The translations under genes were made by a program, and so were the position numbers. The notes below the pieces were generated by a model. The model saw only the letters and a list, made by a program, of their open reading frames with translations, was not told the DNA's origin and ran no database searches. 64,000 nucleotides of DNA. It comes from an uncultured Spirochaetota bacterium. Lineage in GTDB: Bacteria > Spirochaetota > Spirochaetia > SZUA-6 > Fen-1364. Location: contig CAWGAA010000003.1 of assembly GCA_963820525.1 (NCBI GenBank), positions 832,001 to 896,000 of the forward strand. The letters are read 5' to 3'. Shown here in pieces: positions 28,699-58,584 of the stretch; position 1 is the stretch's first letter, and each line of letters opens with the position of its first letter.

Positions 28699-28817
28699 GC
28701 CTAACGAATCGTTGCAGCTCTCCGCCGGAGCGCTGCTCGTGCAGTGTGGGCTTCAGCCGGGTAATGCGGTCAGAACGTGGTTTCATGTCGGGGCGTGAGC
28801 TGAACTCTATGTTACCT
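28699..28817 (+). repeat. attC (B-type)
   Basis: GCCTAAC-gaatc-gttgcagctc...gagctgaactctat-GTTACCT. Confidence 0.85.
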
Positions 28818-28868
28818 AGCGATACTCATGCTAATGGGGTGACATTCAAAGACGCAGCGTCCCATAAC

Positions 28869-30585
28869 GAGTCTGTAGGAAAATATAGCCCAAAAGACAA
28901 CAGTTCTCCTTCAAACTCGATTCAAAAACGATTTATGAATGATCAGAAACCAAAAACCACTCTATCGATATAGATCATCGGACAATCGGTGTCCATTTTC
29001 TTTTCCATCATGCATTCACTCCAGACATCGCCTTTGAAATCTTTCCTATATTATGAACCATGCAATATAATAGCCATTGAATATTCACTTTCGCTTTCGT
29101 TCTCAGAGTGAATCTGTTCAGTCTCTTATGGAATGTGATATTCGCAAACACTGGTTCGATGATTGCCATCCGTCTTGAATATAAATCCCTGACCTCCGGC
29201 CGGTCGATCTTCTGGATCATTTGTGCCGAATAATTGGTGGAATTATCCTTGTCATCTATAAAGAGTGTCCGCTTGCCGCTGCTATTCTTTTTGCGATGAA
29301 AGCATTTATTTGTAAACCGACACCCCTTACAGTCGGACGCTTTGGATTGATAACGATGCCCCGAAGATCCATGAAGTATTGCATGTCCTATATGTTTCAG
29401 TGTTTTCCCGTTGGGACATGTATACGTGTTTGTTTTCTCATCATATGTGAAATTTTGAAATCCAAACTTATACTCGATACCCGAATGATCTTTCCTGTCC
29501 ACGAAGCGCTCGTCTCGTTTTCGAAAGTTGTAGTCCGGGATGATCGCCTCGATTTTCTTATCCGCGGCTGTTTTTAGGTTTTCTTCACAGAAGTAATTCG
29601 TGTCCGCAAGTACGGTCTTTCCTGAAAGAGGTTCTTCCTTGTCGGTGATGGCTTTCAGATTCTCTTCCGCCATTTCAAGAACGGGCTTGAATGTCCCATG
29701 TTCTTGCCCTTTCCCATAGGCTTCGGTGGCTATAATGACCTGGTTTTGTTCATCCGCGAGGGCGATCCCGTTATACCCCTGGATCATTCCGTGAGAAGTC
29801 TTGATCTTTGCGCTATCGTTATCCGTGATATTCGACTGTATTTCCTTGCCACGGTTGCCCTGTTTCGGCGTTTCTGTTTTAAGGAAGTCCTCGATGCGCT
29901 TGATCTTTGAGTCGATCCTATCAATGGCTTTCTTCTTTGGCGAAACTTCGGATCCTGATGCGGTTTCAGCTCTGTCGGTTACAGTATGCTTTTGAATGAG
30001 CAGTTTTACCGTTCTTTCAAGTTTTTCTTTTCTCCTTTTGAGATCCCTGAAGGTGCCGCTCGATTCTTTGGACGCGTTGGACGGCAGCTTGCATCCGTCA
30101 ATCGCAAACAGCTTTCCGCCGATGAGCTCCATTTCCTGGCACACCATGAGGATTTTCAGAAATATGCCGGCGATTTCATCCTTCATCGATGAGATGAAAT
30201 CCGCTATGACCGTGAAATGCGGGATGGAGTTTGCCGAAAGCGCTTTGGCTATGATATTCGTCTCGCAAAGCTCCATGATCCGTCGTGATGAAAATATGCC
30301 TCTGGAGTAGGCGAAAAGAATGATTTTCAGTAAAACCCGAGGATCATATGCAGGAGCACCGGTAAGATCGTTCTTATACTTTGAATCGAGCGCTGATAAA
30401 TCTATTTTCTCGTTGATCAGGTGATTGAGCGTGTATTCGAAGGTATCCATAAGCAGTTGCTCGCTGAACTGGACGACAATAAACTCGCCTTGATCCTGAT
30501 TATGATCCTTATACCGCGCCATGAAGCTATTGTGCGCTGGATATCAAATAGCGTAAAGTAGGCGCGTGGCTTTTCCTACAGAATC
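28869..30585 (-). mobile_element. IS1182-family element 1
   Basis: IRs gagtctgtaggaaaa/ttttcctacagaatc; AAC duplicated. Confidence 0.88.
29008..30522 (-). CDS. IS1182-family transposase
   Basis: GAPAYDPRVLLK (DUF772), AIDGCK, LADTNY, CPNGK, IEPVFANI. Confidence 0.9.
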   Translation of the reverse strand: MARYKDHNQDQGEFIVVQFSEQLLMDTFEYTLNHLINEKIDLSALDSKYKNDLTGAPAYDPRVLLKIILFAYSRGIFSSRRIMELCETNIIAKALSANSIPHFTVIADFISSMKDEIAGIFLKILMVCQEMELIGGKLFAIDGCKLPSNASKESSGTFRDLKRRKEKLERTVKLLIQKHTVTDRAETASGSEVSPKKKAIDRIDSKIKRIEDFLKTETPKQGNRGKEIQSNITDNDSAKIKTSHGMIQGYNGIALADEQNQVIIATEAYGKGQEHGTFKPVLEMAEENLKAITDKEEPLSGKTVLADTNYFCEENLKTAADKKIEAIIPDYNFRKRDERFVDRKDHSGIEYKFGFQNFTYDEKTNTYTCPNGKTLKHIGHAILHGSSGHRYQSKASDCKGCRFTNKCFHRKKNSSGKRTLFIDDKDNSTNYSAQMIQKIDRPEVRDLYSRRMAIIEPVFANITFHKRLNRFTLRTKAKVNIQWLLYCMVHNIGKISKAMSGVNA

Positions 30586-30721
30586 AACAGCGGTTAATGC
30601 GCATCGCCGCCCTTCGGGCGGCTCGGGCTTCGGCGCGCTGCGCCGCGCGCCTCAGCCACATGGCCCTTCGGCCTTGTTGGCCTCAGGGCCACGTCTCATA
30701 ACCGCGGCACGTTATGCGCCA

Positions 30722-30761
30722 TTGCACCAGCTTAGATTTTCTGCATAATATGATGTTGGGC
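30722..30761 (+). promoter_or_regulatory. Cassette-internal promoter + attI-like site
   Basis: TTGCAC-N16-CATAAT; GCATAAT-ATGAT-GTTGGGC. Confidence 0.6.
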
Positions 30762-30856
30762 GCACTTCTAATTGTGATGTCACCGTCGCATGCCAGTGGC
30801 GGTTTTTAACGAATGATCGAGTGGCTAACCTCCGCGCGTAGGGGTATACTCAAGAC

Positions 30857-31459
30857 ATGCCAAATATCCTCGCAACGCTCTCAGTCTCTCACATCGTGCA
30901 GGCAATCATCGTAGGCGGCGTGCTGGCGTTTCTCACGGCAAATATCATTATGAACGCCGCGGTCAAGACCGTGACGACGACCGTCAATGGTTGGAGCACC
31001 ACCTTAAAATGCGGCCAACCCGGCAATGGCATCCTCCTGCGGGCCGCATGCGCTAAAATCCTGCCCGCCGTCAATGTGGCGCAAGAGGCCGCGTACTGGA
31101 CGACGACCATCGACAGTGCGGGGCAGACGCTGAACGGCAAGCACGATTACGTCCTGCGCTTTCCGGCAGGACAGCTCCCGCCGAACGATGCCTTTTGGTC
31201 GCTCACGATGACCGATGTTGTCGGTTACATGGTGAGTAACCCGATCGATCGCTACAGCGTCGGCGACCGATCCGGCCTCGTGCCGAACGCCGATGGCTCA
31301 ATCGACATTTATATCCAGAGCACGGCTCCGGCAGGCCATGAGGCCAGCTGGCTGCCTGCGCCGGCAGGCAACTTCAAACTGATGCTCCGCGCGTATCGGC
31401 CCGGCCGCGCTGTCCTCGACGGCGAGTACCACGTGCCGCCAGTCCTTAAGGTGCAATGA
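30857..31459 (+). CDS. DUF1214-domain protein
   Basis: L.G...Y.LRF..GQLPP..AFWSLT...NADGSIDIYI...WLPAP.G.F.LMLR.Y.P. Confidence 0.85.
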   Translation: MPNILATLSVSHIVQAIIVGGVLAFLTANIIMNAAVKTVTTTVNGWSTTLKCGQPGNGILLRAACAKILPAVNVAQEAAYWTTTIDSAGQTLNGKHDYVLRFPAGQLPPNDAFWSLTMTDVVGYMVSNPIDRYSVGDRSGLVPNADGSIDIYIQSTAPAGHEASWLPAPAGNFKLMLRAYRPGRAVLDGEYHVPPVLKVQ

Positions 31460-31460
31460 T

Positions 31461-32132
31461 ATGAACAGGTTTATTCTGAAACACAAATACCTCGTTACAT
31501 TCGTCATCCTGGCAATCCTTGCATGGTTCGTCTACAGGCAGTTCATTGTGGTGAGGAGCCCACTCTTTCCGTTCGCCGCAGTGGTAGCCATAGTATGGGG
31601 ACTCGGCACGTTCGTTTTCCTTTATTTTTGGCCGCCCATCACGTACAGTGCCTACAAAAGAGCGATCGTTCAGCATGGGTTCGGCGGCGGTCCAATCCCC
31701 GTCAATACGCTTTACGCCATGCCCCATCTCGCTTCGCCCTCGGCGTCAGGCTCCAGCCTATTAGCAACGGGGACCAACGACGTGCTCTACATCGGTGGCT
31801 GGCTCGACCTCTCCAAAGGGCCGCGAGTCCTGCACGTGCCGGACTTCTCCAGGCGTTACTACAGTGTGCAGTTCACCGATCCCTCGGACGGCGCCGACTT
31901 CGCCTATGTCGGCACGCGTACCACGGGTACGCAGGCGGGAGACTATCTCATTACGGGGCCAGGTTGGAAAGGACAGGTACCGAGCGGTATGACGCAGATA
32001 TCCTCTCCGAATAACGCGGTTCTCGTCATGGGGCGCGTGCGCGTCGAGAACGACAGCGACCTGTCGACTGCCTACGATCTTTCGAAGCAGGTACAGCTAA
32101 CACCGCTAAGCGGCTGGCAATCCAGCCAGTAG
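31461..32132 (+). CDS. DUF1254-domain protein
   Basis: NDVLY..GWLDLSKGP.VL.VPD...RYYSVQ...G.YLI.GP.W.G. Confidence 0.85.
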   Translation: MNRFILKHKYLVTFVILAILAWFVYRQFIVVRSPLFPFAAVVAIVWGLGTFVFLYFWPPITYSAYKRAIVQHGFGGGPIPVNTLYAMPHLASPSASGSSLLATGTNDVLYIGGWLDLSKGPRVLHVPDFSRRYYSVQFTDPSDGADFAYVGTRTTGTQAGDYLITGPGWKGQVPSGMTQISSPNNAVLVMGRVRVENDSDLSTAYDLSKQVQLTPLSGWQSSQ

Positions 32133-32160
32133 ATAGAATAAATGCCGTTGGTGCAACGGC

Positions 32161-32296
32161 GCATAACAGTCCGTAATGCGCATCGCCGCCCTGCGGGTAG
32201 CTCGGGCTTCGCGGCGCTGCAGCGCGCCGCTCCGCCACATGGCCCTCCGGCCTTGTTGGCCTCCGGGCCACGTCGCATACGGACGGCACGTTGTGT
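32161..32296 (+). repeat. attC site (A-type)
   Basis: GCATAAC...GTTGTGT. Confidence 0.9.
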
Positions 32297-32366
32297 GACA
32301 TTGCGCTTGTTTCCATATATAATCTTAAGCACTGTTACTCTCTGCTAAAGTTCAAAGGAGGATGTA

Positions 32367-32968
32367 ATGTTGTCGAAAAGGTATCTCTTTAGTGTCAAGA
32401 ACCTTCCTAATATCATGCAGAAAATCATCGATGGCACCGCTCCGGATAATTTCACTCTTGATCACCTACAAGGGCTTGGTTTTAAGGGGAGTGCAGACAG
32501 AGCTATAATCCCAGTATTGAAGGAGCTCTTGGGTTCCTCTCAGAAGATGGGATTCCCACTAAGAGGTATCATGAATACCGTGATAAGTCACAATCCAAAA
32601 GAGTTATGGGAGAAGCCTTGCATGAAGCTTATGCAGATTTATTTCACATAAACGCTAATCCTAGTGAGAACGATCGATCCGCCATCATGGGTAAATTTAA
32701 GAGCACGCATAATGCGACCGATTCCGTTGCTGAGAAACAGGTTACGACGTTTTTTGCTTTATTGAAGCTTGCCGACCTAACATCTACCGTCAAGAAGAAA
32801 ATAGAAAAGCCGCCTGAGGAGATACTGCCGGAAAAAGGAAAAAAGGAACACGCTGACGAGATGCCACTTAGTCTCCGGTATAACATTGAAATTCATTTAC
32901 CCGCAACAAAGGATGTAGATGTCTACAATGCAATATTTAAATCGCTTAAAGCCCATCTGCTGGAGTAG
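32367..32968 (+). pseudogene. DUF5343-family protein, frameshifted near 32523
   Basis: Two overlapping ORFs join as ..PVLK-LGFLSEDGIPTKRY..; C-terminal YNIEIHLPATKD. Confidence 0.65.
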
Positions 32969-32970
32969 CT

Positions 32971-33552
32971 ATGTCAGAAGAATTAACTGATTGGATGTTT
33001 CGAGCGCTGATGTTCGAAGCAGAAGCAGAACATTTCAGAGCCGCAGGAATTAGGTTGGGAGCGGATATGCGGGCGGCAGAAGCTCAGCTTTTAGAAGAGG
33101 CACTTCAGCCATTTCAATTAAGTCTTAGAAATGACGCTCTCCTAATGTGTAGGCTATATGCACAGATATACTGCTTTGAGAACTCCGTAAGAGACGTAAT
33201 AAGATCTAGACTTGAAGAAAAATATAATGTCGACTGGTGGGAGAAAGGTGTACCACAAAAAGTTAAGGAATTTAGTGAAAGTAGACAAAAACAAGCTACA
33301 GAAAACAGCTGGCTAGAGGGTAATAAAAATGATCGTCTTGGCTTCATCGAATTTGGACATCTTGCCTCCATTATTGCGTCCAATTGGGACGACTTTGCAG
33401 ATCTTATTCCGTCTCAGCAGTGGCTAAGTCAACGGTTTGGAGAGCTTGAGCAGGCTAGAAACTATATTGCTCATAATCGTTTGCTGCTTCCGAGCGAGTT
33501 TGCGAGATTGGAGATGTATATTTCTGATTGGAATAAGCAAGTCGGATTATAG
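32971..33552 (+). CDS. Swt1-family HEPN-domain protein
   Basis: FENSVR...WW...RNYIAH (RxxxxH). Confidence 0.85.
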   Translation: MSEELTDWMFRALMFEAEAEHFRAAGIRLGADMRAAEAQLLEEALQPFQLSLRNDALLMCRLYAQIYCFENSVRDVIRSRLEEKYNVDWWEKGVPQKVKEFSESRQKQATENSWLEGNKNDRLGFIEFGHLASIIASNWDDFADLIPSQQWLSQRFGELEQARNYIAHNRLLLPSEFARLEMYISDWNKQVGL

Positions 33553-33593
33553 CGCATAGCAACCTGCAATAGTCGATTTGGGAGTGCAACGTC

Positions 33594-33728
33594 ACACAAC
33601 AGCCAGTATGTGCTTCGCCGCCCTATCGGGCGGCTCGGGCTCCACGGCGCTGCAGCGCGCCACTCCGCCACATGGGCTTCGGCCCTCGTTGGGCCTCAGC
33701 CCACGTCGCATACTGGCAGCCGTTATGG
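33594..33728 (+). repeat. attC site (A-type)
   Basis: ACACAAC...gccagtatg/catactggc...GTTATGG. Confidence 0.9.
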
Positions 33729-33938
33729 GCAAGCCCCGTCGGGAGCGCGCGTGACATACGTAACACTTTTGCATCGACGCATACTGAGCACCTTCAGAGT
33801 AGGTCGTTGCCAGGCTTTTTAATTTCTTCAATCTCGAGGACTTGGGTTTGAGGCTCTTTCCCTGCGGGGGGCTGAGAGGGTCCTGAGGGCCTGCGCCGCC
33901 ACAGTAGGCTGAGCGGCGAGGTGTAGTATACTGCAGCT

Positions 33939-36638
33939 ATGCCCGCGCCCATCCTGGCCACGAAGCTGTTCATGCCCCCGCCCCGGCCGCATGCAGTCCT
34001 CCGCACCCGCCTGATCGAACGCTTGAACGAGGACCAGGGGCGAGGACGGGCTCTCACCCTCATCTCCGCCCCTGCGGGCTTCGGGAAGTCCACGCTGCTC
34101 AGCGCGTGGCTCGACCAGCGCGCGCGGCAGGATCCGAAGTTTCGCGTCGCCTGGCTCTCCCTCGACGAGGGAGACAACGACCCCTCCCGCTTCCTTCTCT
34201 ACCTTGCGGCCGCGCTGCACGGCGTCGAGCCGAGCTGCGGAGCCGACGCGATGGCCGCCCTCCATTCGCCCCAGCCGCCTTCGGCCGAGTCGATCCTCAC
34301 CGACCTGATCAACGAGATCGACGGCATCGCAGGGGATATCCTCCTCGTGCTCGACGACTACCACGCGGTCCGCTCCCCCCAGGTCGATGAGGAGCTCGCC
34401 TTCCTCCTCGAGCACCTGCCTGCGCGCATGCGGCTCGTCATCGCCACTCGCGAGGACCCGATCCTGCCTCTCGGCCGCCTGCGCGCCAAAGGCGAGCTTA
34501 CCGAGCTGCGCGCCGCCGACCTGCGCTTTTCGCCCGACGAGGCGGCCGATTTCCTCGGCCGGGTGATGGGCCTGGAGCTCAGGGCAGAGGACATCGCCGC
34601 CCTGGAGAACCGCACCGAAGGCTGGATCGCCGGCCTGCAATTGGCCGCGCTGTCCATGCAGGGTCAGAAAGACATCGCCGGTTTCATCCATTCGTTCACC
34701 GGCAGCCACCGCTTCGTGCTGGACTACCTGGCCGAGGAGGTCCTGCGTCATCAGCCCGAGGGCATCCAGGCCTTCCTCCTGCGGACCTCCATCCTGGACA
34801 GGCTCTGCGGCTCGCTCTGCGATGCCCTCATGCAGGGGGACCGGTGCCCGCGTCCCGACCTCGTCGCCTCCGGGCAGGAGACCCTGGAATACCTCGAGCG
34901 GGCGAATCTCTTCATCGTGCCCCTGGACAGCGAGAGGCGATGGTATCGCTACCACCGCCTTTTTGCCGAGCTTCTCAGGCAGCGGTTACAGCAGAGCCTG
35001 GCCGCCGACAAGGCCGGCAGTGAGACGGGCGCGGCTGCATTACATATCCGGGCCAGCCATTGGTATGAGGATAATGGCCTGCCCATCGAGGCATTCCGCC
35101 ACGCCGCCGCCGCCGCCGACATCGATCGCGCCGAGCGCTTGATCAACAGCAAGGGGATGCCCCTCCATTTCCGCGGCGCCGTGATCGCAATCCTTGACTG
35201 GCTGGCATCGTTGCCTGCCAGCGTGCTGGACGCACGTCCATCGCTCCGGGTGCTGACCGCCACGATGTCCCTCGTCGCTGGGAGGACCACCGGCGTCGAA
35301 GAGGCGCTCCAAGCCGCGGAGCAGGCCCTGCATGGCGCCGAGCCGGACGAAACGACCCACGATCTCATCGGCCGCATCGCCGCCGCCAGGGCCACCCTCG
35401 CCCTCACCCGCTACCAGCCGGACACTATCATGGTCCAGTCGCGCCGTGCGCTCGAGCACCTGCATCCCGACAACCTTCCCTTCCGCCTCACGGCCAAGTG
35501 GACCATGGCCTTCGCGCATTTCCTCCAGGGGGATCGGGCCGCCGCCGGCCGGGCCTATGTGGAGCTGGAATCCATGAGCCATGTCTCCGGGGACGTCTTT
35601 TTCACGCAGTTGTCCCTGTGCAGCCTGGGGGAGGCCCGGGAGCTGGACAACCAGCTCCACCAGGCCGCGGAGACTTACCGGCGCGCCCTTCGATCCTTCG
35701 GCGACCATCCGCAACCGACCGCGAGCCAGGCGCATCTCGGCCTGGCCCGCATATCGTACGAATGGAACGAGCTGGATGCGGCGGAAGAGCATGGGGAACG
35801 AGGCCTCCAGCTCGCGCGGCAGTACGACAGGGCCGTCGACCGGTTCATCCTCTGCGAGCTTATCCTCGCCCGAGTCACGCTGGCCAGGGGACATATCGCC
35901 GTCGTTGGCGCCAGGCTCGACGAGCTCGCGACCACCGCGCGAAGGCGGGGTTTCCCCCATCGCCTCCCGGAGATCGCCGCGCTCCAGGTACCTGTCCTCC
36001 TGCGCCAGGGCCACGTGGAGGCGGCCGCTCATCTCGCCGGAGCCTTCGACCTGCCCCAGAGCCGGGCGCGGGTCCTCCTGGCGCAGAACGAGCCTTCTTC
36101 GGCCCTGGCGTTGCTCGAGCCGCTGCGCGGCCAGATGGAGGCGAAAAGCTGGCAGGACGAGCGCCTCAAGGTGCTGGCGCTCCAGGCGCTCGCTCTCCAC
36201 GCGAAGGGCCGGGAAGACGAGGCGCTGCGCCTGCTCGTCGAGACGATGGAGCTGGCGGAAGGCGGGGGATTCATCCGCCTCTTCCTGGACGAGGGCGCCC
36301 CGATGGCCAAGCTCCTCTCCGTGGCGGCTGCGCGAGGAATGATGCCAGCGTACGCCGGCAGGTTGCTGACAGCCTTCGCGGCGGAGAAGCAGGTGCGCGA
36401 AAGCGCGCTCGCCGAATCGGCTTCCTCCCTCTCCCCAGCGCTCACCGAGCCGTTGAGCCGGCGTGAGCTCGAGGTCCTCAGGCTCCTCGCAGAAGGGCTC
36501 TCCAACCAGGAGATAGGCGAGCGCCTCTTCCTCGCCCTGGACACGATCAAGGGCCACAACCGGAGGATCTTCGAGAAGCTCGAGGTCAAGCGGCGCACGG
36601 AAGCCATCGCCCGTGGCCGCGAGCTGGGCCTGCTGTAG
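33939..36638 (+). CDS. MalT-like ATP-dependent LuxR-family regulator
   Basis: APAGFGKST, LVLDDYH, RTEGWIAGLQL, C-terminal LuxR HTH. Confidence 0.93.
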   Translation: MPAPILATKLFMPPPRPHAVLRTRLIERLNEDQGRGRALTLISAPAGFGKSTLLSAWLDQRARQDPKFRVAWLSLDEGDNDPSRFLLYLAAALHGVEPSCGADAMAALHSPQPPSAESILTDLINEIDGIAGDILLVLDDYHAVRSPQVDEELAFLLEHLPARMRLVIATREDPILPLGRLRAKGELTELRAADLRFSPDEAADFLGRVMGLELRAEDIAALENRTEGWIAGLQLAALSMQGQKDIAGFIHSFTGSHRFVLDYLAEEVLRHQPEGIQAFLLRTSILDRLCGSLCDALMQGDRCPRPDLVASGQETLEYLERANLFIVPLDSERRWYRYHRLFAELLRQRLQQSLAADKAGSETGAAALHIRASHWYEDNGLPIEAFRHAAAAADIDRAERLINSKGMPLHFRGAVIAILDWLASLPASVLDARPSLRVLTATMSLVAGRTTGVEEALQAAEQALHGAEPDETTHDLIGRIAAARATLALTRYQPDTIMVQSRRALEHLHPDNLPFRLTAKWTMAFAHFLQGDRAAAGRAYVELESMSHVSGDVFFTQLSLCSLGEARELDNQLHQAAETYRRALRSFGDHPQPTASQAHLGLARISYEWNELDAAEEHGERGLQLARQYDRAVDRFILCELILARVTLARGHIAVVGARLDELATTARRRGFPHRLPEIAALQVPVLLRQGHVEAAAHLAGAFDLPQSRARVLLAQNEPSSALALLEPLRGQMEAKSWQDERLKVLALQALALHAKGREDEALRLLVETMELAEGGGFIRLFLDEGAPMAKLLSVAAARGMMPAYAGRLLTAFAAEKQVRESALAESASSLSPALTEPLSRRELEVLRLLAEGLSNQEIGERLFLALDTIKGHNRRIFEKLEVKRRTEAIARGRELGLL

Positions 36639-36722
36639 CAGCCTTCCCGCCTGCACCGGTCTCCCGCATCCCTGAAAACGACACTCCGAATGACACTTTC
36701 GTGTCTACGCGCCGCGGGGCGG

Positions 36723-37724
36723 AATGGACATACTTGCACTATCAAATGATCACAGGAGGCATTTCATGGACACCTATCGACGATCGGGGATTGTGACGGG
36801 GATCTTGTTCATCGCAGCGGATGCAGCCGGTTTCCCGCGGCTATTATACGTTGGCTCCTTCGGTGGAGACCCGAAAAAAGCAACATTTTCGTTCATGACC
36901 GAGTAAAAGGAGAAAATCATGGGAACAACAGAGAAGAAATCGCGGATTCTTGGGCTGGCTTTTCTGATCCAGTTCGTCACATCGTTCACGAACGGTCTCG
37001 TCGTGCTCCCCATGGCCACCGGGGTTCAGGGCTTCGGTCTGCTCGAGAACATCGGCCAAACCATGGCCAACATCGCGAAAAACGCGGGGCTCATCCACCT
37101 CGACATCCTCTTGGAACTGCTAACCGCAGCCGGTGTGATCTTCCTCGGTGCGATTCTGTACTCGGCGGTGAGAAAACAGAACGAAGGACTGGCTTTGACC
37201 GCCTTCGGTCTATACGTTCTGGAAGGCGCCTTGATCGCGGTCACAAAACTCGGACTCTTCGCCCTCTTGGTCCTCAGCAAGCAGTTCATCGCCGCGGGCA
37301 GCCCCGTCTCGCTGGAACCGACGGCCAGGATGGTATACGAAGTCATGTCGTACTCGTCCACGATGTTCAATTTTGCCTTCTGCCTGGGCGCAACGATCTT
37401 CTACGCCCTGCTTTTCAGAGCCCGCACAGTGGCGTGGCCCTTGTCGCTGTGGGGTCTGGTGAGCGTCCAGGGCGTCTTCGCGGGAGTATTGATAGGTCTC
37501 TTCGGCGTCAAAGCTCCCATCTTCCTCTACGTCCTCTACATCCCCTTCGAACTCGTGATCGCCGTCTGGATTCTCATCAGGGGCGTGAAAAAAGAAACGG
37601 TGAACTAGCGCAATGGACATGCTTGCATTATCAAAGGATCACAGGAGGCATTTCATGGACACCTATCGACGATCGGGAATTGTGACGGGGATCTTGTTCA
37701 TCGCAGCGGATGCAGCCGGTTTCC
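36723..37724 (+). repeat. 113-bp direct repeat pair (36723-36835 and 37612-37724)
   Basis: Four mismatches; includes an RBS and the start MDTYRRSGIVTG. Confidence 0.9.
36919..37608 (+). CDS. DUF4386-family membrane protein
   Basis: Multi-TM; paralogous to neighbours (P..LS.WG...FE...A.W.L.RG). Confidence 0.8.
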   Translation: MGTTEKKSRILGLAFLIQFVTSFTNGLVVLPMATGVQGFGLLENIGQTMANIAKNAGLIHLDILLELLTAAGVIFLGAILYSAVRKQNEGLALTAFGLYVLEGALIAVTKLGLFALLVLSKQFIAAGSPVSLEPTARMVYEVMSYSSTMFNFAFCLGATIFYALLFRARTVAWPLSLWGLVSVQGVFAGVLIGLFGVKAPIFLYVLYIPFELVIAVWILIRGVKKETVN

Positions 37725-38347
37725 TGTCATTTTTAGCGCAACCGCTTATCAACGCCCCGGACTACCTGACGAAAATCTCCGCGAACGAAGTGACGGTCCT
37801 CGCGGGGGCGTTGCTGGTCTTCATCATGGGCTGGGCCGATGCCGGCATCGGGATTTCGATGTATCCGATTCTGCGGAGGCACAACGAAGGCCTCGCACTG
37901 GGTGCTGCCGGATTCAGGATCATCGACGGGGTCTTCCATTGCATCGGCGCTGTTCTCATCCTCCTGCTGGCGACCTTGAGCCGGGAGTTCATCAAGGCAG
38001 GACCAGCCGATCTGGCGCAGTTCCAGAACCTCGGCGCGCTGCTGCGGGAAGGGCGCACCTGGGTGGGCGATGTGGCGGCTCTCCCCGCCTGGTGCATCGG
38101 CGCGTGTCTGTACTATTCGCTGTTCTTCAAGACGCGGCTGGTCCCTCGCTGGCTGTCCCTGTGGGGGCTCGCCGGGATCACCCTGACCATAGCCGGAAGC
38201 ATCCTGGTCCTGTTCCGCCAGATCGCCCCCATGTCGACCGTCCAGCTGCTCATGTACCTGCCCTGCGCTCTGCAGGAAATAGTGCTGGCGATCTGGCTCA
38301 TCGCGAAGGGATTCAATCCATCCGCAATCGCCTCGCCGCAGCGCTGA
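37655..38347 (+). CDS. DUF4386-family membrane protein
   Basis: LVPRWLSLWGL...QEIVLAIWLIAKGF. Confidence 0.85.
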   Translation: MDTYRRSGIVTGILFIAADAAGFLSFLAQPLINAPDYLTKISANEVTVLAGALLVFIMGWADAGIGISMYPILRRHNEGLALGAAGFRIIDGVFHCIGAVLILLLATLSREFIKAGPADLAQFQNLGALLREGRTWVGDVAALPAWCIGACLYYSLFFKTRLVPRWLSLWGLAGITLTIAGSILVLFRQIAPMSTVQLLMYLPCALQEIVLAIWLIAKGFNPSAIASPQR

Positions 38348-38377
38348 CGGCGGCGCGGTGCAGCAGCGAAGAGCCTC

Positions 38378-38611
38378 ATGGAGTATCAGATACGGATCAA
38401 GGGCGAGCTGGGGCAGGAATGGGCAGACTGGTTCGGAGGCTCTGCCATCGCTCGGGAGGGAGACGGCGTCACGCTCCTGACCTGCGCCGTGGTCGACCAG
38501 GCTGCGCTGTATGGCCTTCTCAGGAAACTGCGGGACCTGGGTCTGCCCCTGCTCTCGATCAATCGCATTGACGACTGCCCCGAGCGGAAGCCCGAGGCTA
38601 AGTCGACATAA
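38378..38611 (+). CDS. Small conserved protein typical of MalT/DUF4386 clusters
   Basis: YQIRIKG.L...W..WF.G...DQAALYGLL.KLRDLGL.L. Confidence 0.75.
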   Translation: MEYQIRIKGELGQEWADWFGGSAIAREGDGVTLLTCAVVDQAALYGLLRKLRDLGLPLLSINRIDDCPERKPEAKST

Positions 38612-38656
38612 CCGTCCCGCGTGGCCAGACCACCGCGACGACAGGAGGCATCGAAC

Positions 38657-39361
38657 ATGACGAATTTTATAGAAGACGTACGGCCGCGGACCATGGCCCG
38701 CATCGCCGGGTTCCTGTACCTCAGTTTCATCATTTTTATGGCACTCGCCAACGTGGTTGGCCGCATGGGCATCATCGTAGACGGCGACACAGCGGCCACG
38801 GCCGCGAATATCATCGCGAAGGGAATACGTTTCCGCATCGGCTTCGTGAGCGATCTATTGTCAGCCCTGCTTTTCCTCTTGACCGCGTGGGCACTCTACG
38901 CGCTCCTGAAACGGGTGAACAGGACTTTGGCCTTATTGTTCCTGCTGCTCAACATGTGCGGGGTCGCCATGCAATGCTTCAGCATGATTCTCCTGTACGC
39001 GGCCCTTCCTCTCCTGGGAGGAGGCGGATACCTCGCCGCGTTCACCACTAATCAACTCAACGCCCAGGCCATGTTCTTCCTCGGTCTCTACAAAGCGGGA
39101 TTCTCGAGCGCCCAACTCTTCTACGGCGCATGGACCTTGCCTTTGGGGTACCTCGTGTACAAATCCGGATTCCTCCCCAAAGCCCTCGGCGTCCTTCTCA
39201 TGATTGATTGCCTGGCCATACTCGTCTGGTTCTTCCAGTTTATCTTTCTGCCCAGTTATGCGACCATAAGCTATCCCTGCTATGCAGTCAGCTTCATCGC
39301 GGAATTCTCGCTTACCCTCTGGCTGCTCATCAAAAGCATCAAGGAGGAAAGGCTTATGTGA
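38657..39361 (+). CDS. DUF4386-family membrane protein
   Basis: ARIAGFLYL...GYLVYKSGFLPK.LG. Confidence 0.85.
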   Translation: MTNFIEDVRPRTMARIAGFLYLSFIIFMALANVVGRMGIIVDGDTAATAANIIAKGIRFRIGFVSDLLSALLFLLTAWALYALLKRVNRTLALLFLLLNMCGVAMQCFSMILLYAALPLLGGGGYLAAFTTNQLNAQAMFFLGLYKAGFSSAQLFYGAWTLPLGYLVYKSGFLPKALGVLLMIDCLAILVWFFQFIFLPSYATISYPCYAVSFIAEFSLTLWLLIKSIKEERLM

Positions 39362-39573
39362 GAGTCTTCATCGCGCCGCAGCGGGTGAGTCATATTTCCA
39401 TGGCACAGCGGCAGCAGTCTTTTCCAGGAACACATTTTGCACGAGTAGAGCTCCCCGGACAGGCACAGGACCAAGATTCAGGGTTGGTTCCGCTCAGTAG
39501 CCCGAAATGACAGTTGTTATCAGTCAGAGACGAGCAATAGTGAGTCGGATCAGAGACTGAATAACAGGAGGTA

Positions 39574-40086
39574 ATGATTATGAGCGCAATGGATAAGCAC
39601 CTTCAGAGCATCCAATACACATCACAAGGAGAAGGCAAAATGCGAAAAAGAGGTTCGATAGTTCTCTCAATATGGAGCGGTATCAACATTTTCGTTGCTT
39701 CCTTAATATTAACCATTGTCGTCTTTCACTTTGGAAACTCACCGCTTCTGGTAATGGTCTTTGAAAAATCTGAAATCGCTAGACTTGACGCCAAAGTCAT
39801 TTCGGCTCTCAATTGTTTGACAATCCTTTACAACTCTTGTGATGTTGCCCTCTCAGTACTGGCATTATTCATTATCTGGTCAGGTCTAATCAATGGCAAA
39901 AGGTGGGCTTTTTGGGCATTGCTGATCACGATTGGCTTTGTAGAGATATTGGCCTTTGTCGCTTCCGCAGAAGTCGGAAATGTCTGGCTGAGATGGCAAG
40001 TGAATGTTGTTCAGAGCGTTTTATACATTGTGGGCATTGGTTTGTCTGGCTATTCCATATTCAAGTCCAAGCAGCAGGCCGTATGA
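39574..40086 (+). CDS. Hypothetical membrane protein
   Basis: RBS AGGAGG, 4 hydrophobic segments. Confidence 0.7.
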   Translation: MIMSAMDKHLQSIQYTSQGEGKMRKRGSIVLSIWSGINIFVASLILTIVVFHFGNSPLLVMVFEKSEIARLDAKVISALNCLTILYNSCDVALSVLALFIIWSGLINGKRWAFWALLITIGFVEILAFVASAEVGNVWLRWQVNVVQSVLYIVGIGLSGYSIFKSKQQAV

Positions 40087-40235
40087 TCAAACAAATGATA
40101 GGTTAATCGACCCCGAGAGCGCTGCCTATCTGATACGGGTGTGGTCAGAATGGAGCCTGCCGACCGACCGGCTGCGGGCGGCGAGTTCGAGCGACCGGTT
40201 AAGCCATGCCGCACGGGCATCATAAAACAGGAGGA

Positions 40236-41210
40236 ATGAGCATGAAAGCGATAGTGCAAACGAGATACGGGCTGCGCAGCCTGCGGATCATGGATGCACC
40301 CAAACCGGTCCCGGGAGAGAATCAAGTCCTGGTCAGGGTCCATGCCGCGGCCCTGAATTATGCCGTCATGTTCCGGGTGACGGGGAAGCCTTTTCTTGCC
40401 CGCCTGATGATGGGCAGCCTCCTGAAGCCGAAGCGATGGATCCCCGGAGGCGAAATGTCGGGACGGGTGGAAGCGGTCGGCGCGAAGGTGCGCGCCTTCA
40501 AGCCTGCCGACGAAGTCTACGGGGACACGTGCAAATGCGGATACGGAGCGCTCGCCGAGCTTGTCTGCGCCGACGAGAGCGCGCTCGCCCTGAAGCCGAC
40601 CACGCTTTCGTTCGAAGAGGCGGCGGGCGTGCCCCAATCGGCCCTCGTCGCCCTGCAGGGCCTCCGCGCCGGAGGGATCCACAAAGGCCAGAAGGTCCTG
40701 ATCCATGGAGCCTCCGGCGGCATCGGAACCTTCGCCGTGCAGATAGCGAAATCCTTCGGCGCCGGGGTGACGGGCGTGTGCGGCGCCAAGAACCTGGACA
40801 TGGTGCGCTCGCTTGGCGCCGATCGCGTCATCGACTACGCCACGGAAGGCGTCGCGGAGGAGGCGGAAGCCTATGACCTCATCCTGGCGATCCGCGGCAC
40901 CCGCCCGGTTCGCGATTATTACCGCGCGCTGCGTCCGGGCGGAACCTACGTTATGGCCGGAGGCTCCCCTTTCCGATTCATGATGACCGCTTTCCAGGGA
41001 TCGCGGCTCTTCAGGTCCGGAAGCAAGACGATGAGGAGATTCACCTACTCGCCGAACGCGGAGGACCTCTTGCTCATGAAGGGGCTCATAGAAGCGGGGA
41101 AGGTCCGGTCCATCATCGACAAGGTATATCCTCTGAGCGAGGCGGCCGAAGCATTCCGTTACCTCGAGAAGGGACATGCGAGGGGGCGAGTGATAGTTCG
41201 CGTGGGATAA
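40236..41210 (+). CDS. NAD(P)-dependent MDR-family (quinone oxidoreductase-like) dehydrogenase
   Basis: VLIHGASGGIGTFAVQIAK; GHARGRVIV. Confidence 0.9.
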   Translation: MSMKAIVQTRYGLRSLRIMDAPKPVPGENQVLVRVHAAALNYAVMFRVTGKPFLARLMMGSLLKPKRWIPGGEMSGRVEAVGAKVRAFKPADEVYGDTCKCGYGALAELVCADESALALKPTTLSFEEAAGVPQSALVALQGLRAGGIHKGQKVLIHGASGGIGTFAVQIAKSFGAGVTGVCGAKNLDMVRSLGADRVIDYATEGVAEEAEAYDLILAIRGTRPVRDYYRALRPGGTYVMAGGSPFRFMMTAFQGSRLFRSGSKTMRRFTYSPNAEDLLLMKGLIEAGKVRSIIDKVYPLSEAAEAFRYLEKGHARGRVIVRVG

Positions 41211-41306
41211 TGGGCGAGCGTTGAAGTCAGGGATCAGCTGAGTCCCCTCCCGCAATCGATAAGATTTGCGTCGTCGAAACCGTCGTAAAAAAGGTACGGG
41301 GGCACC

Positions 41307-41519
41307 ATGGGTCCCTCGGCCCGCGGGGCGATGTACCGGCTCGTCGAGCTTCTCGGAGATGAGGAATGGCTGGTGCGAAAGGCGGTCGTCTATGCCCAGT
41401 CGTTTATCGCTCCAGATGATCCGGATGTATTGAAAGCGCTGCGAAATCGCCTGAATGACCCGAAAGACCAGGTGCGGGCAGCCGCCAACCTCTTTCTAAG
41501 AACGCTTGAAGATCAATAG
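41307..41519 (+). pseudogene. HEAT-repeat protein C-terminal fragment
   Basis: LL.DE...VRKA; L.D...QVR.AA; followed by a truncated B-type attC start (CACTAAC at 41527). Confidence 0.5.
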
Positions 41520-41603
41520 GAAAGAACACTAACAATGATTGTGGAGCTGTACTGACGGTTCTTATAAGGGATTAGTGTAAAATCTGGCACAACGGCACAT
41601 AAC

Positions 41604-43317
41604 GAGTCTGTAGGAAAAGCTAGCAAAAAACAACGCCCTCCTTCGGGCTCATTATTGAACTACAAATGATCAGAAACTAAAAATCACTATTTCTGGCTGT
41701 TAGCTCTCGGACATTCTATGCCCGTCTTCTTTTAGCTCATGCATTTGCGCCTGCCATCGCCTTTGAAATCTTTCCTATATTATGAACCATACAATACAAT
41801 AACCATTGAACATTCACTTTCGCCTTCGTTCTCAGAGTGAATCGATTCATTTTTTTGTGGAATGTGATATTAGCAAACACCGGCTCGATGATCCCCATCC
41901 GTCTTGAGTATAAATCCCTGACATCCGACCGGTCGATCTTCTGGATCATCCGTGCAGAATAATTGGTGGTATCATTCTTGTCATCTATAAAAAGCCTCCG
42001 CTTACCGCTGCTATTCTTTTTCCGATGAAAACATTTATCGGTAAACCGACAACCCTTACAATCGGACGCTTTAGATTGATACCGATGCCCCGAAGATCCG
42101 TGGAGTACTGCGTGTCCTATATGTTTGAGTGTTTTCCCGTTGGGACAGCTATACGTGTTTGTCTTCTCATTATACGTGAAATCTTGAGGTCCAAACTTAT
42201 ACTCGATACCTGAATGTTCTTTCCTGTCCGCGAAGCGCTCGTCTCGTTTTCGAAAGTTGGAGTCCGGGATGATCGCCTCGATTCTCTTCTCTGCCGCCGT
42301 CTTCAGGTTTTCTTCACAGAAGTAATTGGTGTCAGCAAGTATGGTCTTTCCTGAAAGAGGCTCTTCCTGGTTGGTGATGGTTTTCAGATTCTCTTCTGCC
42401 AGCTCAAGAACGGGTTTGAACGTCCCGTGTTCCTACCCTTTCCCATAAGCTTCGGTGGCTATTATGACCTGGTTTTGTTCGTCCGCGAGGGTAATCCCAT
42501 TATACCCCTGGATCATGCCATGGGACATCTTGATCTTTGCGCTGTCGTTGTCCGTGATATTCGATTGTATTTCCTTACCTCTATTCCCCTGTTTCGGACT
42601 CTGTGAACCAAGGAAGCCCTCGATGCGTTTTATCTTTGAATCGATCCTATCAATGGCTTTTTTTCTCTTTAGCGAAACCTCTGATCCTGATACGGTTTCA
42701 GCTCTGTCGGTTACCGTATGCTTTTGAATGAGCATTTTCACCGTTCGTTCAAGTTTTTCTTTTCTCCTGTTGAGATCCCTGAAGGTTCCACTTGATTCTT
42801 TGGACGCGTTGGAAGGCAGCTTGCATCCGTCAATCGCAAACAGTTTCCCGCCGATGAGCTCCATGTCCTGGCACACCATGAGGATTTTTAGAAATATGCC
42901 GCTGATTTCATCCTTCATCGATGAGATGAAATCCGCTATGACCGTGAAGTGTGGAATAGAGTCCGCGGAAAGCGCTTTGGCGATGATATTTGTCTCACAA
43001 AGCTCCATGATCCGCCGTGATGAAAATATGCCTTTGGAATAGGCGAAAAGAATGATTTTCAGTAAAACCCGAGGATCATAGGCAGGTGCACCGGTAAGAT
43101 CGTTTTTATACTTTGAATCGAGTACGGATAAATCGATTTTTTCGTTTATCAGGTAATTGAGAGTGTATTCAAAGGTATCAGGAAGCAGCTGCTCACTGAA
43201 TTGGACGACAACGAACTTTCCCTGATCTTGGTTGCATTCTTTATACCGCGCCATTGTGCTATTGTGCGATGGATATCAATTAGCGTAAAGTATCTGTTTG
43301 GCTTTTCCTACAGAATC
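41604..43317 (-). mobile_element. IS1182-family element 2 (related to element 1)
   Basis: Same 15-bp IRs; AAC duplicated. Confidence 0.88.
41737..43254 (-). pseudogene. IS1182 transposase with in-frame TAG at 42433-42435
   Basis: Homologous to 29008-30522 on both sides of the stop. Confidence 0.85.
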
Positions 43318-43530
43318 AACAGCGTATTTGCGCTTCGCGCGCCAGTAAGCGCGCTCGGGGCTTCGCCCACATGCCTCGCTTCGCTCGGCACGTCGTATAC
43401 GCGCGTGACGTTAGCTGCAAGTTTTTCGGGCGGAAGTATAGATATGATTTTGCGCTATCCATGGCGCAAAAAACAATCTGAAGAATATAGATATTTTGAA
43501 TAGTAGAATTGAAAATAGTATATTAATTAT

Positions 43531-44190
43531 ATGAAGTTTCGAAAAACTTCATTAGGAGGTTTCATTTTGAAAAATGAAAAATCTACTGAACAAACACCAT
43601 CAACTAGAATGAATCCTAAGGTTGATGTATTTCTAAGTAAAGCCAAAAAGTGGCAGGAAGAAGTGGAGAAATTGAGAATGATCATTCTTGACTGTCAGCT
43701 GACCGAAGAATTGAAGTGGGGTTGGCCATGTTACACGTTTCAGAAAAGTAATATAGTTTTAATAAATGGATTCAAAGAATACTGTGCGCTTTTGTTTTTC
43801 AAAGGTGCCTTGTTAAATGATGCCAATGGTATTCTAATCAAAATTGGGGAGAATACGCAGGCGGGGCGCCAGATTCGGTTCACCAATGTTCGAGAAATAG
43901 TTGAGATGGAACCCATTTTGAAAGCCTATATTTATGAAGCCATTGAAGTGGAAAAAGCCGGTTTAAAAGTGAATTTTAAAAAGAATACAGAACTCATATT
44001 TCCTGAAGAATTTCAAAATAAATTAGATGAAAACCCTGTCTTGAAAACTGCTTTTGATGCATTGACGCCGGGACGGCAAAGAGCATACAATCTTTATTTT
44101 TCTGCACCCAAACAATCCAAAACTCGGGAGTCAAGGGTTGAAAAATGTATGGAGCAAATTCTCAATGGAAAGGGATTAAATGATCAGTAA
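43531..44190 (+). CDS. YdeI/OmpD-associated (DUF1801) family protein
   Basis: EELKWG.PCY...FKEYCALLFFKG...LTPGRQRAY; true start may be MNPKVD. Confidence 0.88.
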   Translation: MKFRKTSLGGFILKNEKSTEQTPSTRMNPKVDVFLSKAKKWQEEVEKLRMIILDCQLTEELKWGWPCYTFQKSNIVLINGFKEYCALLFFKGALLNDANGILIKIGENTQAGRQIRFTNVREIVEMEPILKAYIYEAIEVEKAGLKVNFKKNTELIFPEEFQNKLDENPVLKTAFDALTPGRQRAYNLYFSAPKQSKTRESRVEKCMEQILNGKGLNDQ

Positions 44191-44209
44191 TTCGATGAGA
44201 AAAACCAGC

Positions 44210-44368
44210 AGCTAACAGCGGCTATACGCTGCGGTGCGTCCTCGCGCGGCTCCGGGCGCTCCTCGGCCCTAGCGGCGGGCACATTTGCCTATGGCAAGCC
44301 TTTTGCGAAGCAAAAGTCTCGCCATTCGCTACGCGACCGGCAAACGTCGTATAGCCGCACCGTTAGCT
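44210..44368 (+). repeat. attC site (A-type)
   Basis: AGCTAAC-a-gcggctatacg...cgtatagccgc-acc-GTTAGCT. Confidence 0.9.
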
Positions 44369-44394
44369 GAAATGGACAAGGGAGAATAGATGAA

Positions 44395-44916
44395 ATGAAG
44401 ATTGATGTCGAATATCTAAAATTTATGTGGCCGATGAGACATTTCTTAGTAACATGTGGGGAAATAGAAGTAAAATCAAATATCATAGCAGTCAGCTTTT
44501 GTATGCCTGTATCAAAAGAACCCCCACTTATAGCTTGTGCCATCGGGAAGAAATCTTTTTCATATGAGTTAATCAAAAGCAATAACGAATTTATTGTAAA
44601 TATCCCTCCTGCTCAGCTAGAACCGAGAATATATTATTGTGGTTTCCACTCAGGATATCAAGTTGATAAATTTAAAGAAACGGGATTAACTCCACAACCA
44701 GCACGAAAAGTGAGAGCTCCTATTATTGCTGAGTGTCTAGCTCATATTGAGTGCAAGGTTAAACAAGAAATCGAAACAGGAGATAAAAACCTGTTTATAG
44801 GTGAAGTAATAGAGGCGTATGCAAATGAAGATATTGTAAAAGGTGCGGGGAAAGTTGAGTATGCGGAAGGCGATTTTCCACGCAAAGTATATGCCACAAG
44901 ATTTAAAAGCTCGTAG
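44395..44916 (+). CDS. Flavin reductase family protein
   Basis: PVS.EPPLI...EFIVNIP...SG..VDKF...P.I.EC...IEC. Confidence 0.9.
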   Translation: MKIDVEYLKFMWPMRHFLVTCGEIEVKSNIIAVSFCMPVSKEPPLIACAIGKKSFSYELIKSNNEFIVNIPPAQLEPRIYYCGFHSGYQVDKFKETGLTPQPARKVRAPIIAECLAHIECKVKQEIETGDKNLFIGEVIEAYANEDIVKGAGKVEYAEGDFPRKVYATRFKSS

Positions 44917-44931
44917 TCCACTTCAGCTAAC

Positions 44932-46663
44932 CAATCTGTTGAATAATTGCGTTTAAAGAAAAGTGATCTACCGATTTTATTTCCAATCAATCAGAATAGT
45001 TGTTTTTATTTAATCATCAGTTCTGAAGAGCGGCTCCTCTATCATCCCACCTGCCAGGCTTCAATCTTTTTTATCTCGCCTTTGCCGTATTGTTTTATTT
45101 TTTGGATATTGTGAACCAGCATATACAAAAGCCATTGTATTTTGACCTTGGCCCGTCCCCGTAACGTAAATCGATTCAGTTTCTTATGGTACGTGATATG
45201 TGCGAATACCGGTTCCACAATCCCCATTCGGCGAGCGTACATGTCACGTCCTTCCTCCGTATCGATCTTTTCCCTCATCTTTACAGACCAGGTCTTTTTT
45301 TTGGGCTTGGTCGTGACAAAAAGTGTCCGTGATTTCGCCTGCCGGTTGAGACAGCGGTAATGATTGACGCACATGCGGCAATCCAGTATTGATGCTTGAT
45401 ACCGGTCCCCACAGTACCCGTGAAAGAGGATTCCTTTGCGCTTCAAGGTCAGCCGCTTGCCCATCGGACAATAGTAGCAACCGTCCTTTTCGTCATACTG
45501 GAAATCCTCCTGCCGGTACTTCACCCGTTTCTTCTGCTCTTCCTTATTTTCAGGATACCGTGGATCCCGCACCCTGAAGCCATGATCGGGGATATACCCG
45601 TCAATCCCATTCCGGAGCAGAAACCGACAATTATCCTCGGAGAAATAGTTCGTATCGGCCAGGAGGGTGGCTGATTTCAATCCCAGGCCGAAACATTTCA
45701 TCCTCCTTAAGTTTTCCTTCGCCCCTTCCACCATGTCGCCCAAATATTCATGCTCGCAGACGTTGCCGAAGGCGTCCGCGCTCACCACGATCTGGTGTTT
45801 CCCGTCCGTGAGGGCCAGTCCGTTATAGCCCTGAATCACGCCGCGGCTCGACGCCATCTTGGCGCTCTCGTTATCCGTGATATTGCTCTTATTCTCCCGG
45901 ATTCGTCGCCCGGGTTTCGGATCGTTTTTCTCAAGAAACTCGCGAATTCGTTCGATTTTCCTATCCAGACGCTCCTTTTGTACGCGTAGCTTTTCCCTTT
46001 GTTCTTTGTCCTCTCGGTCGGTCCGTTTGTGTTTCGCTATCAGGTAACTGACCGTTTTCTCTAGTTTCTCCTTTTTTCCCTCAAGCTCCTTCAGGGTACC
46101 GCTCGATTCTTTGGAGGCGTTGGAGCTGAGTTTACAGCCATCGAGAGCGAAGATTTCCCCGCCGATCAGATCGAGCTGGGCGCAGATCAATAACACCTGA
46201 CGGAATATTTCCGTAATGTCGGTTTCCATAGATTTAATGAAGTTTGCGATCGTAGTATGGTCCGGAGCATTGTAGCCCGTCATCGCGATGAACACGACGT
46301 TTTCCCGACACAGGGTTTCCATCCCGCGCGACGATATGACCGATTTCGCCTAGCAATTGATGATGATTTTCAGCAACAGGCGTGGATCGTATGCGCGCAC
46401 TCCTCGCGTTTCGTTATGATATCTTGATTCAAAAAGCGACAGGTCCAATCGATCGAGCACCTGACAGCTTGCGTATTCGAATGTTCCTGGAATAAGCTGA
46501 TCCTTGAGACTCACTGGGATGAGCATATTCTGCTCGTTGTGATGATCTTTGAAGCGCGCCATTTCCCCTCCCGAGCCATAACGTGACTGTGCCATTAACG
46601 ATTCGTTGCTGTCAATGATTTTATGGCATAGAATCATTCCCGGAGGATAAATTCAACAGATAC
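44932..46663 (-). mobile_element. IS1182-family element 3 (divergent)
   Basis: IR core atctgttgaat/attcaacagat; AAC duplicated. Confidence 0.82.
45042..46562 (-). pseudogene. IS1182 transposase with in-frame TAG at 46350-46352
   Basis: AYDPRLLLK...*...ALDGCK...LADTNY...VEPVFAHI in one frame. Confidence 0.85.
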
Positions 46664-46773
46664 AACAAAGCGTAGACGCTTCGCGCCCTTCGGGCGCTCG
46701 GCCTTCGGCACATTTTTTGCCTGCGCTTCGCTCCGGCAAAAAACGTCGTCTACGCTTGGAACTTTATAGGCCA

Positions 46774-46813
46774 TTGCCCTAGCCGCTATATTCAGCATAA
46801 TACAATGTTAGGC
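46774..46813 (+). promoter_or_regulatory. Cassette-internal promoter + attI-like site
   Basis: TTGCCC-N16-CATAAT; GCATAAT-ACAAT-GTTAGGC. Confidence 0.6.
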
Positions 46814-46826
46814 TCGTTTATGAGAA

Positions 46827-50839: not shown

Positions 50840-50878
50840 AACGTCGCATAATCGACGTTGGCGGTATGGAGAATAAAA

Positions 50879-58573: not shown

Positions 58574-58584
58574 TCCTTTCCTCC

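Follow-up and report, generated by a model that had tools for sequence, protein, structure and literature searches.

IS1182-family insertions at the attC sites of a Spirochaetota cassette array and of their relatives in other phyla

To our knowledge, the established parasites specific for the attC sites of integron cassettes are of two kinds only, IS1111-attC elements and group IIC-attC introns, each of which locates its target through RNA. Members of the IS1111-attC group (ISPa21, ISPst6, and ISKpn4) are specific for one attC end and, in the available parts of the published accounts, lie near the attC 5' end in antisense orientation, as do group IIC-attC introns such as S.ma.I2 (PMC3001079, PMC11187229). 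As for the IS1182 family of insertion sequences (IS), the available sections of one study report that IS1272 targets stem-loops, replacing stem-loops of unrelated sequence without target duplication, and that some other members target palindromes (PMC5678879). Here we describe a 64-kb window (64,000 nucleotides; GenBank assembly GCA_963820525.1, contig CAWGAA010000003.1, hereafter C3, positions 832,001 to 896,000) from the 5.05-Mb genome of an uncultured Spirochaetota bacterium, in which three IS1182-family elements interrupt attC sites of an integron-type cassette array. Their recurrence among relatives suggests an extensive and seemingly undescribed group of IS1182-type transposons specific for attC, and the compared sequences make it very probable that the DDE transposase of this IS1182-family clade chooses the conserved AAC/GTT triplet at the base of the attC hairpin. 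A full-text literature search returned no report of attC targeting by IS1182 elements in the portions of text that it covered. The finding is best filed as a DDE-transposase type of a known phenomenon, that of attC-specific mobile elements. Numbering below is that of the window unless a contig (C1, C2, or C3) is named.

The array extends from the left edge of the window to ~46.8 kb, with its open reading frames (ORFs) on the plus strand. Downstream of each ORF comes an imperfect palindrome of 70-160 nt, delimited by RYYYAAC (the R'' box) and GTTRRRY (the R' box), as expected of integron attC sites, in which these boxes surround an imperfect palindrome of 50-160 nt. The first insertion, IS_A copy 1 (28869-30585, minus strand, 1717 bp), is delimited by the terminal inverted repeats GAGTCTGTAGGAAAA and GATTCTGTAGGAAAA and encodes an intact transposase of 504 residues (29008-30522, minus strand). 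It directly follows the R'' box CCATAAC (28862-28868), the AAC of which (28866-28868, plus strand) is found again on the right side of the element, where it opens the remaining attC (30586-30718, plus strand) that ends with the R' box GTTATGC (30712-30718). IS_A copy 2 (41604-43317, minus strand, 1714 bp), the transposase frame of which is broken by one in-frame stop, is likewise preceded by AAC (41601-41603) and followed by the duplicated triplet and the attC body (43318-43416, plus strand). The third insertion, IS_C (44932-46663, minus strand, 1732 bp), has the ends CAATCTGTTGAAT and GTATCTGTTGAAT and one in-frame stop in its transposase frame; it lies between AAC at 44929-44931 and its duplicate, which starts the final attC of the contiguous array (46664-46769, plus strand), whose R' box is degenerate (TTTATAG). 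The junctions, with slashes at the IS boundaries, read cccaTAAC / GAGTCTGTAGGAAAA ... TTTTCCTACAGAATC / AACagcgg for copy 1, cacaTAAC / GAGTCTGTAGGAAAA ... CCTACAGAATC / AACagcgt for copy 2, and cagcTAAC / CAATCTGTTGAAT ... ATTCAACAGATAC / AACaaagc for copy 3. Since the uninterrupted paralogous attCs carry a single AAC (TAAC/AGCG), the 3-bp AAC target duplication is genuine. The three transposases are all encoded by the minus strand, opposite to the cassette ORFs and the attCs, which belong to the plus strand. A first-pass annotation of this DNA had proposed three IS1182-family insertions from at least two distinct elements, each placed straight after the TAAC of an R'' box, duplicating AAC, and antisense to the array; coordinates, junctions, and strands confirm this description. 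Copies 1 and 2 share 86.7% DNA identity, and IS_C is a distinct element, with different ends and a protein identity of only 45.7%. Copy 1 alone has an intact frame among the three.

A fourth copy is found elsewhere in the genome, at C1:3086308-3088024. It is an IS_A element 99.5% identical to copy 1, with an intact frame, inserted in a fourth attC (cacCTAAC / IS / AACagcaaat) in the same orientation relative to the attC as in the window. This attC belongs to a small cluster on C1 with no integrase nearby. The same annotation had considered that a majority of other copies at non-attC sites would speak against its proposal; the copies compared did not refute it, and the R'' position and the antisense orientation are observed in 4/4 copies of this genome. 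The flanks of copy 1 and of the fourth copy are unlike on either side, with nothing in common past the inverted repeats, and these elements therefore moved recently by transposition and not as cassettes. A search of this genome for miniature derivatives or solo ends of IS_A and IS_C found none.

The attC nature of the occupied sites was assessed with a covariance model, R2, derived from 12 uninterrupted window attCs only and independent of the IS flanks. R2 detects 26 sites in the genome, of which 18 are on C3 and the others form two clusters on C1; the C3 matches, which span 831197 to 891443, all have the plus-strand orientation, that of an array running one way. Four of the 26 detected attCs are occupied by an IS. 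At all four, R2 aligns over its full length, the outer portion of the R'' box being matched by 4 terminal nt of the IS, with scores of 93.6 bits for copy 1 (C3:862582-862717, window 30582-30717, full model, starting 4 nt within the IS), 66.2 bits for copy 2 (window 43314-43416), 52.4 bits for IS_C (window 46660-46769), and 105.7 bits for the fourth copy, as compared with 27.0-126.6 bits for the unoccupied sites. Other tools were less productive: Rfam reports no match in the window at gathering thresholds, and hence no usable attC model, and a strict R/L-box scan recovered only 3, then 9, attCs. R2 also bears on the idea that the elements are gene cassettes encoding a transposase and placed by the integron integrase. 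A transposase gene can indeed be a true cassette, as illustrated in the window by an IS91-family gene with its own attC and cassette-type boundaries. However, the IS1182 elements have inverted repeats at their termini and duplicate 3 bp of their target, no attC is found within them (R2 matches lie only outside), and they are located here at the R'' box and not at the crossover point, which makes a cassette origin highly improbable.

The family assignment relies on the curated IS1182 model NCBIfam NF033551, which the copy 1 transposase exceeds (285.7 bits; cut-off 270). The copy 3 ORF (426 residues) remains under the cut-off (244.5 bits) because the stop truncates it. Pfam domains PF05598 (DUF772, N-terminal) and PF13751 (DDE_Tnp_1_6, C-terminal) are present in copies 1 and 3 and are divided between two ORFs in copy 2. 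Terminal inverted repeats and a target duplication, further traits of the family, are present here as repeats of ~15 bp and a duplication of 3 bp. Family and domain scans returned only IS1182 and DDE domain matches, and no IS110/IS1111-type DEDD transposase; neither a reverse transcriptase nor a group II ribozyme was found, the single ORF being the DDE transposase, and Rfam being silent as stated above. The elements thus differ from both established kinds. IS1111-attC elements combine a DEDD transposase with a seekRNA and are devoid of classical inverted repeats and of such a duplication. Group IIC-attC introns are retroelements, made of a ribozyme and a reverse transcriptase, that rely on RNA pairing and a stem-loop, whereas the present elements are DNA transposons with a seemingly protein-only machinery. 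Nothing observed suggests a guide RNA.

The comparison was extended to 112 elements, namely the 4 of this genome, 78 genome loci from a transposase-profile search of species-representative genomes (39-59% identity), and 30 metagenome loci. The relatives are found in Spirochaetota, Nitrospirota, Desulfobacterota, Gammaproteobacteria, Bacillota, Elusimicrobiota, Omnitrophota, and others, and share the conserved ends GAGNCTGTAGAAAAA. Flanks were classed by script, except for IS_C, which was classed by eye. A GTT duplication is present at 73/112 elements (72 by script and IS_C), GTT at the sole visible end at 13/112, and GTT with one copy mutated at 2/112; an AAC duplication, which is the same triplet with the IS flipped, is present at 6/112 and AAC at one end at 4/112. 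The flanks of 10/112 are of other types, and the ends of 4/112 are not recognisable. A GTT or AAC triplet therefore flanks 98/112 elements (GTT 88, AAC 10). Random insertion, with arrays as the only places tolerant enough for the copies to survive and be sampled, might be suspected from the richness of the window array in other mobile elements (IS91 and IS630). It is barely credible, as it cannot yield the same nucleotide, duplication, and orientation in 4/4 copies here and a common triplet in 98/112 relatives; besides, cassette ORFs and spacers are never hit, and the junction data contradict it.

In the metagenome scan, a single close relative has both ends (L098; 73% identical, GTT duplication), and for L127 (82% over the last 91 residues) the right end alone is visible, flanked by GTTA. 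A relative is held by 3 of 72,556 plasmid records, all three from marine bacteria; among these records, no IS element of this type was found on clinical plasmids. The flipped arrangement RYYYAAC / IS / AAC, in transposase orientation, is seen at L099-L102, L104, L105, L120, L124, L015, and L069, and at L100 a second IS right end occurs, followed by the same flank repeated ~105 nt downstream.

Read in transposase orientation, GTT-type targets share a common layout of attC body, one spacer base, GTT, and IS, but two configurations exist. In clade A, which comprises the window elements, Spirochaetota loci, and Gracilibacter, the IS occupies the R'' triplet, and the transposase is encoded opposite to the R2 matches and the ORFs, an antisense arrangement relative to the cassettes. 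Clade B, which is larger, has its IS in the GTT of the R' box, that is the cassette junction and integrase crossover point, and at the loci with R1 matches the cassette ORFs run with the transposase. Locus L048 exemplifies clade B: an intI gene (453 residues, 440 bits) lies on the opposite strand, the first cassette begins with GTTATGT, and its attC, with the R'' box ACATAAC, contains the IS within its R' GTT, the IS being followed by GTTAGAC and the next cassette. The transposase tree has a branch, with a Shimodaira-Hasegawa-like approximate likelihood ratio (SH-aLRT) of 88, that sets clade A apart on one side, and side and orientation labels are strongly clustered. When metagenome rows are included, at least five small lineages show the flipped AAC type, and most of the non-GTT elements fall in one subclade. 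The proposal that IS1182 elements target the R'' box therefore holds for clade A, but most relatives, those of clade B, use the R' GTT and are co-directional with the cassettes. Clade A resembles the IS1111-attC elements and the group IIC-attC introns in its place and orientation, whereas clade B departs from the former by its position at the R' end and its co-directional orientation. A likeness also exists with the IS1202-family elements at pdif/dif sites, which are DDE-type and insert in a given orientation beside a site-specific recombination site, according to the available part of their description (PMC10132070); they differ by their family, by the recombination system (XerC/D dif as opposed to integron attC), and by the spacing.

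The targets of the relatives were compared with attC sites by means of a second covariance model, R1, built from 17 IS-upstream flanks of other genomes, each a contiguous sequence ending at GTT. Two class 1 integron arrays from plasmids (33.9 kb, 8 cassette attCs) served as control. At E <= 0.01, R1 finds 4/8 class 1 attCs, those of cmlA (37.4 bits), aac(6')-Ib (36.4 bits), VIM-5 (28.1 bits), and OXA-21 (23.8 bits), all on the cassette coding strand, and nothing else in the 33.9 kb; it is weak on the dfrA15 attC and on the aadB attC remnant, and misses both aadA attCs. As a model made from IS flanks recognises class 1 cassette attCs, these flanks belong to the attC family. Over 68 loci, R1 reports 22 matches ending exactly at the IS and 36 more at uninterrupted sites, all on the transposase strand, with cassette-like spacing and with ORFs on that strand. 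R2 matches abut the IS on the strand opposite to the transposase at L002, L005, L006, L007, L014, L103, and L106, and on the same strand at the flipped locus L124, while R1 adds L108, L115, and L122 with weak E-values. Each model covers one attC style. Taken together, they place a model-supported attC directly against the IS end at 37/112 elements, and seven further loci have other attC matches. Scoring the homologues' flanks with attC covariance models, the check suggested by the first-pass annotation, thus yields a recognised attC at a third of the elements. Three of the five host genomes tested possess an integron integrase above cut-off. Locus L083 offers a direct comparison with an example of the IS1111-attC kind, as an IS110-family gene interrupts the aadB attC there, leaving only model positions 16-57 beside the IS110-type element; the insertion point is different, since IS1182 elements cut at the AAC/GTT triplet itself.

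The position, duplication, and orientation of the insertions, their repeated finding in many phyla, and the fact that many targets are attCs are observed features, from which a mode of target choice may be proposed. A transposon of this clade, defined by its DDE transposase, its termini, and its 3-bp target duplication, would follow, in transposase orientation, the rule attC body, N, GTT, IS, GTT, A. Staggered cuts would flank the GTT, with the attC stem 5' of the transposase gene. For clade A the strand so read is the attC bottom strand, hence the landing in R'' and antisense to the cassettes, and for clade B it is the top strand, hence the landing at the R' GTT and co-directional with them. 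Recognition would involve a very short sequence, N-GTT-A/G, together with an adjacent stem or cruciform, as proposed for IS1272; as the sequence requirement is tiny, the neighbouring stem probably contributes. IS1272 belongs to the same family (NF033551) and also uses inverted-repeat or stem-loop targets, in the passages available of its description (PMC5678879). Unlike IS1272, the elements of this clade leave the hairpin in place, duplicate 3 bp, use GTT in every case, and are linked to a single hairpin class, the attC.

Alternatively, the IS may read only the short N-GTT-A/G motif: every attC has two such motifs, and insertions between cassettes would be harmless and survive. GTT is indeed the sole strictly conserved flank, and several GTT-flanked copies (e.g. 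L042, L062, and L065) have no recognisable attC. However, counted on both strands, the genome contains GTTA 5751 times and GCTGTTA, the 7-mer common to the three IS_A targets, 104 times, yet every copy is in an attC R'' box. Eleven of these 104 sites are attC R'' boxes, including the three held by IS_A, and if the 7-mer were the sole requirement, three IS_A hits would occur by chance with a probability of (11/104)^3 = 0.0012. In addition, these attCs present C-GTT-A on their R' side too, which is used in 0/4 cases, and the orientation is constant within each lineage. Chance is excluded in practice, and a purely motif-based choice appears unlikely.

Several observations nevertheless weigh against attC-hairpin choice by this clade. 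The motif-based explanation is disfavoured only at p ~0.001 within this genome. Only 37/112 targets are model-supported, ~50 GTT/AAC-flanked sites are unclassified owing to short flanks or to an attC type outside the models, 16 of the 22 abutting R1 matches are its own training rows (6 are not), and the E-values of R1 and R2 are rough. Hand-made hairpin statistics (constrained folding energy, end-to-end pairs, and stem run) failed to separate targets from controls; the same-locus controls probably held attCs, and the maximum over partner candidates inflated the background. The 10 other-flank elements, mostly of one subclade, do not use the triplet. Lastly, in one Nitrospirota genome, 15 copies are inserted at the GTT of a non-attC hairpin of 20 nt, GGGCTCGGC-GTT-ACTCGCCC. 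The proposed attC targeting thus stands for the 4/4 copies of the window's genome but is not absolute across the relatives, given this lineage and the subclade with other flanks.

The Nitrospirota hairpin is the middle of a dispersed ~190-nt repeat, the outer stems of which are long and variable between copies. While this lineage shows that GTT can be taken in a non-attC repeat, its target is itself a hairpin repeat, with 34 empty core copies (<=3 mismatches) for 15 occupied ones and 0 for a reversed control pattern, which suggests that context beyond 4 nt matters. The repeat returned no credible Rfam match, the sole match at E <= 0.1 being a weak one to a plant microRNA family, far under the gathering score. 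The repeat loci (L024-L036, L038, L075, and L086-L097) share the conserved inner hairpin GGGCTCGGCGTTACTCGCCC and often occur as adjacent inverted pairs. In the genome of the window (G000), a distant IS1182-type element at C2:49037-50758, with a transposase ~24% identical and similar ends (CAGGCTGTCGAAAAAACC), seems to have duplicated 3 bp (ATT) at a site that is not an attC, and provides a natural contrast to the attC-specific clade.

What becomes of an occupied attC is a separate matter. The IS terminus beside the retained GTT (GTT+G+AGGC; GAAT(C)AAC in the window) may imitate an R box, which might leave the attC usable and the IS inside a mobile cassette. GTT+G+AGGC pairs with GCCTAAC when the G bulges out, and the window GAAT(C)AAC pairs with the R' box GTTATGC at 6/7 positions in a by-eye reading. 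Over 21 clade B sites, GTT followed by IS bases 2-5 pairs on average at 2.24 of 4 positions, compared with 2.10 for the native box and 1.05, the random level, for the unbulged IS end. This statistic in part reflects the general purine/pyrimidine pattern of R boxes, and the IS_C end shows no mimicry of its partner box; both facts count against the imitation. We infer that the attC could stay functional, with the IS carried as a passenger; the first-pass annotation had suggested this too, with an R''-like box that the duplicated AAC might restore. A broader scenario would be that of a phylum-spanning guild of DDE elements specialised on the folded attC, in which the GTT-G-AGGC terminus reconstitutes a functional R box, so that an occupied attC still recombines and the IS travels between integrons inside a cassette, some lineages having switched between R'' and R' ends and, once, to another hairpin repeat; this can be entertained only as a tentative and rather doubtful extension.

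If target choice by these transposases is as proposed, a third, DDE-based kind of attC parasite would mean that attC can be recognised by protein alone, and the clade would be a tractable model of how IS1182-family elements choose targets by structure. Such elements would also be frequent modifiers of cassette arrays, by which cassettes may be fused, arrays terminated, or the IS itself co-mobilised, and their description would help to annotate many transposases reported in cassette arrays. For instance, a plant-microbiome survey labels 49% of cassette-associated transposases as IS5, and targeting is not discussed in its available part (PMC11089894).

Regarding the surroundings of the array, no integron integrase with the IntI-specific insertion is found beside it. 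The adjacent recombinase (L081:1222-2019, C3:825826-826623), 5.4 kb left of the window and divergent from the ~60-kb array, is an Xer-like protein of 265 residues, with 201.6 bits on a XerA-type model and 191 bits on the integron-integrase model (cut-off 265). Compared with IntI, it is missing the specific segment that corresponds to residues ~175-235, and its identity to the IntI encoded by this genome is 32%. Elsewhere, C1 carries two canonical IntI genes, both above cut-off. The first gene beside this recombinase encodes an IS91-family transposase (L081:2205-3407, on C3 left of the window; 420 bits on NF033538), and identical genes of this family (400 residues, 427.7 bits) are found in the window at 3546-5050, 5491-6995, and 26217-27721. 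Each of the window genes starts after an R' box GTTGAAC and is followed by its own identical attC with the R'' box GTTCAAC, the upstream attCs being different (82-83% identical), so that these IS91-family genes look like true gene cassettes. Within window 28699-28868, R1 reports a weak attC-like site (19.4 bits, E 0.09) ending at 28813, ~55 bp before the R'' box that holds IS_A copy 1, and copy 1 may therefore sit in an almost empty, ORF-less cassette. At 2-3247, a homologue of the anti-phage protein Upx is divided between two ORFs (model positions 164-880 and 948-1238); DNA methyltransferases are among the products of other cassettes, and the gene at 20800-21921 is that of an IS630-family transposase. 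Past the last contiguous attC, from 46770 to 59443, the G+C content climbs to ~60% over sugar-uptake and glycosidase genes, and one further attC is present at 59310-59443 (R2 58.6 bits).

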